Assembly (NCBI RefSeq): GCF_003334765.1
Contig: NZ_QOWT01000096.1
Length of the DNA stretch: 805 nucleotides
Direction: 5' to 3' (one strand)
From: Escherichia coli
GTDB lineage: Bacteria > Pseudomonadota > Gammaproteobacteria > Enterobacterales > Enterobacteriaceae
The notes under the pieces were generated by a model. That model did no database searches and was not told where the DNA came from. It worked only from the letters and a program-made list of their open reading frames with translations. Of the stretch, positions 1 through 805 are shown piece after piece. Numbering within the stretch: the stretch's first letter is position 1; every line of letters starts with the position of its first letter. Both the position numbers and the translations under genes were made by a program.

Positions 1-805
1 CTGAAACGTATTTTGCCTGGTAACGGGCGTCATCAAGTGCATTATGGCGCTCACCTTCGAATGGAATAGCCGTTCTGGCATCGAAGTCTATGGCTTTCCC
101 CAGCTCAACGATTGTGCGTACATCGCGATCGTTGTAGTAACGCCACGGGCAGGGGATCCCCTGCCGTTCGTATGAACGGCGCAAAATCGTGTTGTCGAAG
201 TTGGCTCCATTTCCCCAAACCTGAACAAAAAATTCACCGGAGTTTTCGTCGATAAATTCCCGCAATTGTAACAGTGCATCATCTAACGGGATTTCATCGG
301 TCATAATGGCAGATTGCGCTTCGCGTGATTGCTTAAGCCACCATTTAATGGTGTCCCGATCAATGACTCCGCCAGCAGTTTCCAGATCGATAGTCTTACT
401 AAATTCCGGTCCCATATCTCCGGTTTGCGGATCGAAAAATATTGCACCTATTGAGATGATCGGGGCATCAGGATTTTTTCCCATGGTTTCAAGGTCGATC
501 ATTAGATGGTCACACGTCCTGCTGGTGGATGTGATTTCTTGATGACCGTTCACCTTAATTGAGTGATCTGCCGTCTCGCCAGTTTCATTATCGCTATCGT
601 GATGCTGATTGCCGCCAGTGTTCTCCTTGTGTGGATGTTCAGCGCCTTCCATTTCCTCCGGATCATCTTCCTGAACTTCAACCTGATACTCTTCATCGAA
701 TGTTTCTTGGTATGTTGCGTCGCCCATCACCGCGCCACAATCAGGGCAGTTGCCGCCGCCGGTCTGACCGCAGGCGGTGCAGACTTTTTCCACTTCCTGT
801 TGCGC
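1..805 (-). CDS. Internal fragment (5' and 3' ends outside window) of a large prophage-type nuclease: RecE-like Cys4 zinc ribbon and acidic linker followed by a DEDDh (DnaQ-like) 3'-5' exonuclease domain
   Basis: Reverse-complement translation in the frame where + 803..805 is codon 1 gives 268 consecutive sense codons with no stop: [268 protein letters not shown]. It contains recognisable exonuclease motifs and an enterobacterial-looking codon pattern. The other five frames are broken by stops or give only the short ORFs in the track. Confidence 0.88.
148..165. repeat. Perfect 18-bp palindrome GGCAGGGGATCCCCTGCC (9-bp arms, no spacer, GATC at the centre)
   Basis: Read directly: + 148..165 equals its own reverse complement; position 147/166 breaks the symmetry. 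Lies inside the CDS (codons for R-Q-G-I-P-C-P). Confidence 0.95.
163..180. repeat. Inverted repeat / hairpin: 7-bp stem GCCGTTC (163..169) and GAACGGC (174..180) with a 4-nt loop GTAT
   Basis: Read directly; overlaps the 3 terminal bases of the 18-bp palindrome, giving a 33-bp block (148..180) of dense dyad symmetry. Confidence 0.85.
566..721 (-). other. Acidic, His-containing low-complexity linker between the zinc ribbon and the exonuclease domain
   Basis: Translation [53 protein letters not shown] is dominated by D/E with several H, G and N and has no hydrophobic core pattern, consistent with a flexible interdomain linker. Confidence 0.6.
737..781 (-). other. Cys4 zinc-ribbon-like motif (CxxC-x7-CxxC)
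   Basis: Translation [19 protein letters not shown]: Cys codons at + 779..781, 770..772, 746..748 and 737..739. Glycine-rich spacer typical of small zinc ribbons. Confidence 0.6.

Follow-up and report, generated by a model that had tools for sequence, protein, structure and literature searches.

The window, by which we mean the whole 805-bp stretch of DNA that was analysed, lies in one gene. Six-frame translation found frame 0 of the reverse complement open over all 805 bases (268 codons), and the window is 99.8% identical to two annotated coding sequences, namely 14447-16888(-) of phage vB_EcoS-640R1 (locus L001) and WP_097346547.1 of E. coli 510016 (locus L002). The full exonuclease gene encodes about 813-824 amino acids and the window represents its C-terminal third; the stop codon is situated 41 nt past window position 1, and about 13 last codons fall outside. 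The gene is placed directly upstream of the excisionase and integrase genes (xis/int) in lambdoid prophages of E. coli (Rac-like/PPompW-type) and in phages. Sequence matches were obtained in 4,722 of 5,426 complete E. coli genomes (~87%), at a median of 2 and a maximum of 8 places per genome, and 20 of the places were plasmid-borne. The parts of the gene in the window are as follows:

1-805, minus strand: prophage exonuclease gene, internal-to-3′ fragment (from the translation and the 99.8% identity to annotated coding sequences)
2-508, minus strand: predicted Rv2179c-like 3′-5′ exo(ribo)nuclease domain (DEDD superfamily), residues 100-268, PF16473
557-802, minus strand: acidic linker plus a segment of the pattern Cys-X2-Cys...Cys-X2-Cys; homology to RecE outside its catalytic part, NF007259

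The profile PF16473 matched residues 100-268 of the window protein over practically its full length (model positions 2-174 of 177, E = 2.3e-66), and the related region was also recognized by PF00929 RNase_T (E = 1.3e-4); by these profiles the domain is a predicted 3′-5′ exonuclease domain of the Rv2179c-like type. Window residues 2-83 were aligned to positions 521-602 of the NCBIfam profile NF007259 (E = 6e-34). The full protein scored 944.4 bits against this profile, where the curated cutoff is 1269, and was aligned to profile positions 1-602 of 877 only. An identity as the RecE (exodeoxyribonuclease VIII) equivalog was thus rejected, the score being under the cutoff and the catalytic C-terminal domain missing. 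Judged from its domain content, the gene is a chimera of a RecE-like N-terminal region and a DEDD exonuclease, and RecE proper is excluded. It resembles RecE of the Rac prophage in holding the same place beside xis/int in the early-left operon and in its N-terminal ~600 residues, which are homologous, and differs in that the RecE catalytic domain (profile ~603-877) is absent and a DEDD domain is present instead. Database records often label the chimera as ‘exodeoxyribonuclease VIII’. The Rv2179c-like DEDD exonucleases of many phages are stand-alone proteins of ~190 amino acids, whereas here the domain is fused to the RecE-like N-terminal region of ~600 amino acids; T4 DexA, a PF16473 relative, is 28% identical to the window domain over 79% of its length.

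At residues 9-24 (window 733-781, minus strand) there are two Cys-X2-Cys pairs, followed by a very acidic and His-rich stretch. The pair motif in the RecE-like linker is possibly a small zinc ribbon; a Pfam search of this candidate returned zinc-ribbon families at sub-threshold level only (E = 0.2-0.7).

The prophage copy of E. coli 510016 also carries a truncated DNA methyltransferase gene (L002 34310-34720), and an integrase gene is located ~170 bp downstream of it (L002 34891-36105); an integrase-bearing element may have interrupted the methyltransferase gene. When a prophage-encoded Dam was sought, this remnant was the sole methyltransferase found, a PRK11524-like adenine methyltransferase fragment, and since it scores 68 bits against a cutoff of 292 its GATC specificity is unsupported.

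The earlier note had listed nine GATC tetramers in this DNA, and a motif count over the 805 bp returned exactly these nine and no others. They are given below with the codons that carry them:

127-130, strandless: GATC in codons GAT-CGC, Asp-Arg, residues 226-227
155-158, strandless: GATC in codons GGG-ATC, Gly-Ile, residues 216-217; centre of the palindrome at 148-165 and of a BamHI site
358-361, strandless: GATC in codons GAT-CGG, Asp-Arg, residues 149-150
385-388, strandless: GATC in codons GAT-CTG, Asp-Leu, residues 140-141, within a TIDLET motif
430-433, strandless: GATC in codons GAT-CCG, Asp-Pro, residues 125-126
458-461, strandless: GATC in codons CCG-ATC, Pro-Ile, residues 115-116
497-500, strandless: GATC in codons ATG-ATC, Met-Ile, residues 102-103, start of a MIDLET motif
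565-568, strandless: GATC in codons GAT-CAC, Asp-His, residues 80-81
661-664, strandless: GATC in codons GAT-CCG, Asp-Pro, residues 48-49

Seven of the nine are inside the domain coding sequence (2-508) and two in the entire linker portion (nt 509-805). At six sites the codon GAT for Asp is followed by a codon that begins with C (DP, DH, DP, DL, DR and DR), and at the other three a codon ending in G precedes ATC for Ile (MI, PI and GI). Every GATC is therefore an Asp-X or X-Ile codon pair, in agreement with the remark that GATCG and ATCGAT contexts here come partly from Asp, Ile and Arg codon pairs. The window protein has 25 dipeptide positions capable of a GATC, of which 9 are used. The two DLET motifs (MIDLET and TIDLET) were considered as an internal repeat that generates regular GATC spacing, and this was rejected, because the GATCs sit at different places in the one and the other.

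The bases of the window are near even (A 167, C 213, G 187, T 238). In a ranking of tetramers against base composition GATC was at the top of 136 classes (observed/expected 2.87), and ATCG, CATC, ATCA and TCGA came next with 2.5-2.7 fold enrichment. As these neighbour tetramers are equally enriched, the excess would lie in GAT and ATC as trinucleotides.

A motif excess in coding DNA is to be judged against a protein-aware null, and not against base composition. From mononucleotide composition 3.02 GATC are expected, which bears out the ‘about 3’ of the earlier note, and the Poisson probability of at least nine is 0.004. Shuffles that preserve dinucleotides gave 5.28 ± 2.05 sites and reached nine in 13 of 200 cases, and the trinucleotide Markov estimate, N(GAT) × N(ATC)/N(AT), was 8.8. 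Permutation of the codon order gave 5.74 ± 2.11 (P(≥9) = 0.10). Synonymous-codon permutation, which keeps both the protein and the codon usage of the window itself, gave 6.84 ± 1.65 (P(≥9) = 0.15). Back-translation takes its codon usage from outside, so that the own usage of the window cannot mask selection; it gave 7.41 ± 2.03 sites with the usage of 63 long host ORFs (P(≥9) = 0.29) and 6.31 ± 1.88 with that of the other genes of the same prophage (P(≥9) = 0.12). An analytic dipeptide model expected 7.17 sites (Poisson P(≥9) = 0.29). This model was calibrated on 155 host ORFs (206 kb), where it predicted 1011.9 sites and 997 were observed (ratio 0.985); a protein-aware null that departs by no more than 1.5% from the count in 206 kb of host genes thus removes the signal.

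The three-fold excess claimed for this DNA accordingly stands against base composition (P = 0.004) and falls away against the synonymous-codon and protein-aware nulls, under which no GATC excess beyond the coding constraints was found (P = 0.12-0.29). The observed nine are still 1.6-2.7 sites over the expectations of the synonymous, back-translation and dipeptide models. In 14% of host windows of 268 codons the observed-minus-expected residual is at least as large as here, and in 26% the ratio is. Within the window, the domain coding sequence has 7 sites against a protein-driven expectation of 5.06 and the linker portion has 2 against 2.10; the full exonuclease gene has 15 against 15.35, and its remainder outside the window 5 against 7.75. 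With its protein-driven expectation of 7.17 the window ranks among the top 0.6% of host windows, and hence what is unusual here is the protein and not the nucleotides. Asp makes up 10.1% of the window protein and 5.5% of host proteins.

The density was also compared with its surroundings. The window has 11.2 GATC/kb, and the stretch 127-664 has 16.7/kb. The host chromosome carrying the gene has 4.25/kb over the 340.8 kb surveyed, and its 805-bp windows hold on average 3.40 ± 2.33 sites, a distribution which is overdispersed relative to Poisson. At least nine sites occur in 3.5% of these host windows, in ~30 separate regions of the 340.8 kb. The housekeeping genes mfd and potD, beside one of the prophage copies, reach up to 10 GATC per 805-bp window, and the dnaA region of the same genome, taken as positive control, reaches up to 15. 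No other stretch of the prophage is as dense as the window, which has about four times the density of the rest (11.2/kb versus 2.7-2.8/kb).

The prophage outside the window is poor in GATC, with 2.7-2.8/kb against 4.25/kb in the host (L001 13029-35292; L002 18539-34720). The host flank adjoining the prophage in L001 has 5.8/kb.

Conservation was judged from five homologues, whose identity to the window in the alignment ranged between 95% and 79-80% (BLAST 95-81%). By falling identity they have 9, 9, 7, 6 and 4 GATC in total and keep 8, 8, 7, 4 and 4 of the nine sites of the window, while the retention predicted from all tetramers in the same alignments is 7.6, 7.2, 6.8, 4.5 and 4.5. No preferential conservation of GATC was found in these five homologues of 79-95% identity; the retention is that of an average tetramer. 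Six more remote homologues of the domain, at 28-59% protein identity, from phages of E. coli, Serratia, Providencia and Klebsiella together with T4 dexA, have 2-3 GATC per ~520 nt; their 3.8-5.7/kb is no different from the genome average. On these alignments, the family conserves neither the sites nor their density. A further 80 related loci on viral contigs, with 6-7 GATC in the domain, are all 99-100% identical at the protein level and hence of no use for tests of divergence.

Taken together, the richness in GATC is very probably a passive by-product of the encoded protein and the ordinary codon choice of E. coli. The window protein is unusually rich in Asp, and its GATC-capable dipeptides are Asp before Leu, Pro, His or Arg, Ile after any residue, and Arg-Ser. 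E. coli favours GAT for Asp (~62%), and about half of its Ile codons are ATC; the usual codons, applied to such an Asp- and Ile-rich protein, would give ~7 GATC, and nine would be within normal scatter. From established Dam biology, the sites would be methylated by the host Dam, bound by SeqA transiently after replication and used by MutH like any other GATC. We see no sign in these comparisons that the number or the position of the sites is under selection. The points that speak against a by-product (the tetramer rank, the contrast with the prophage, the surplus of 1.6-2.7 sites, the spacing and the palindrome) do not survive the conservation tests, and yet their weight is not zero.

The earlier note had offered a compositional origin as an alternative and had proposed codon-shuffled versions of the ORF and the genome background as controls. 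Both support that alternative: 6.8-7.4 sites are expected from the protein where 9 are observed (P = 0.15-0.29), which does not uphold the excess, and 3.5% of host 805-bp windows are as dense. Since codon-shuffled controls and genome background show a similar density, the functional reading fails by the standard which the note itself had set. Within the reach of an analysis of sequence, its suggestion of a role in methylation-dependent regulation, mismatch repair or restriction sensitivity is refuted, the sites being intragenic, not preferentially conserved and short of known cluster definitions. The result has little biological consequence and its value is in clearing the finding. A real excess would have suggested Dam- or SeqA-linked control of the early-left prophage operon in ~87% of complete E. 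coli genomes, and the evidence does not support it.

One alternative is that the sites form a selected element responsive to Dam and SeqA. SeqA would bind the hemimethylated cluster after replication, or the state of methylation would change how a regulator binds, and either would modulate transcription through exo-xis-int or raise the fidelity of MutH-directed repair in this gene. We consider this very unlikely. Its attraction is the local density of 11.2/kb, where the host has 4.25/kb and the prophage 2.7/kb, along with the spacing: of the eight distances between neighbouring sites, three are 27-28 bp (pairs 127/155, 358/385 and 430/458), a pattern with a post hoc P of 0.008-0.017 under synonymous-codon permutation, i.e. 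~0.01. SeqA is reported to bind pairs over a range of roughly 31 bp, and these pairs are inside it. A phasing of the SeqA type was nevertheless rejected on geometry, for 27-28 bp is ~2.6 helical turns and would place the two sites of a pair on different faces of the helix. The count is accounted for by protein and codon usage, the sites are conserved no better than random tetramers, and the 27-28 bp pairs are lost in the diverged homologues (79-93% identity). A promoter scan of the window returned 0 sites, the density is far below the 15 per 805 bp of the dnaA region, and the sites lie further apart than in the intragenic clusters defined by Riva et al. (2004).

It is just as improbable that a local structure is the real feature and the GATC in it is incidental. 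An 18-bp perfect palindrome, GGCAGGGGATCCCCTGCC, lies at 148-165; it is centred on the GATC at 155, has the BamHI site inside, and is adjoined by a hairpin at 164-179 (CCGTTC-GTAT-GAACGG) with a 6-bp stem. The two might act as a double stem-loop of the early-left transcript, or the palindrome as DNA bound by a protein. A palindrome of 18 bp has a per-window P of 0.003 by mononucleotide shuffle and 0.009 by synonymous permutation, and only 5 perfect palindromes of at least 18 bp exist in 340 kb of host DNA. The RNA of 135-190 (minus strand) folds into the two hairpins at -23.9 kcal/mol (z = -2.7), and 2 of 200 shuffles were as good. One homologue of roughly 79-84% identity has the palindrome whole. 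In a 93% homologue, however, two purely synonymous changes disrupt it, in the 81% homologue amino-acid changes do, and such breakage argues against strong constraint. The structure covers only one of the nine GATC, an Rfam search of the window at E ≤ 1 gave no match, and the palindrome was picked post hoc among many possible oddities.

Other repeats of the window are slight. A 13-nt direct repeat has two copies (378-390 and 423-435) which bear two of the GATCs in GATCGA context, and this short two-copy family was treated as chance; apart from it, the repeat search found weak inverted repeats only. One weak terminator-like site at 513-533 (plus strand, the non-coding strand) is within the shuffle expectation.

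The palindrome at 148-165, the hairpin at 164-179 and the three pairs of 27-28 bp could also be imagined as one joint DNA or RNA element, sensitive to Dam methylation and lying within the 3′ part of the exonuclease gene, which would tune read-through into xis-int and hence excision. The chance of this is slighter still; an element of this kind would concern a prophage family that is present in most E. coli genomes.

Least credible of all is a link to GATC-targeting restriction, through a counter-selection relaxed by Dam protection or through a role as decoy or target of methyl-dependent (DpnI-like) enzymes: the entire prophage is indeed GATC-poor (2.7-3.2/kb against 4.25/kb in the host), which is a difference of GATC composition at the scale of the element, but an effect of restriction would be expected element-wide and not on a single 805-bp stretch, the full gene has its expected number of sites (15 against 15.35) with an ordinary residual in the window, and the sole methyltransferase remnant is truncated and not of Dam type (PRK11524, 68 against 292 bits).

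We compared the window, read as a by-product of protein and codon choice, with the known systems of clustered GATC. The clusters of oriC and the dnaA promoter, where SeqA sequestration operates, likewise have several Dam sites close by and some pairs less than 31 bp apart; oriC carries 11 GATC in 245 bp. Those clusters belong to regulatory or origin DNA, with a much higher density and with GATCs whose positions are conserved, whereas the sites of the window are intragenic, number 9 per 805 bp, are explained by the codons and are not preferentially conserved. A cluster of the sequestration type has tens of sites per kb, far above the tail of the genome, and the window has 11.2/kb (16.7/kb in 127-664); in the five homologues no positional conservation beyond the background was seen, and in place of an origin or promoter the window is wholly inside an ORF with 0 promoter-like sites. 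In the Dam-dependent phase-variation switches pap and agn43 the methylation state of GATC serves as the signal, with 2-3 GATCs falling within promoter-region sites for Lrp or OxyR; the window, by difference, is deep in an ORF and has no promoter-like site. Riva et al. (2004; PMC493266) require of an intragenic GATC cluster two motifs less than 8 bp apart or three within 62 bp, and in a second step at least 4 motifs whose spacing averages less than 18 bp. In the window no two sites are closer than 27 bp, the densest group of three covers 71 bp, and in the densest group of four the gaps average 33 bp. What the window shares with the intragenic clusters of Hénaut and Riva is an above-average GATC density inside coding sequence.
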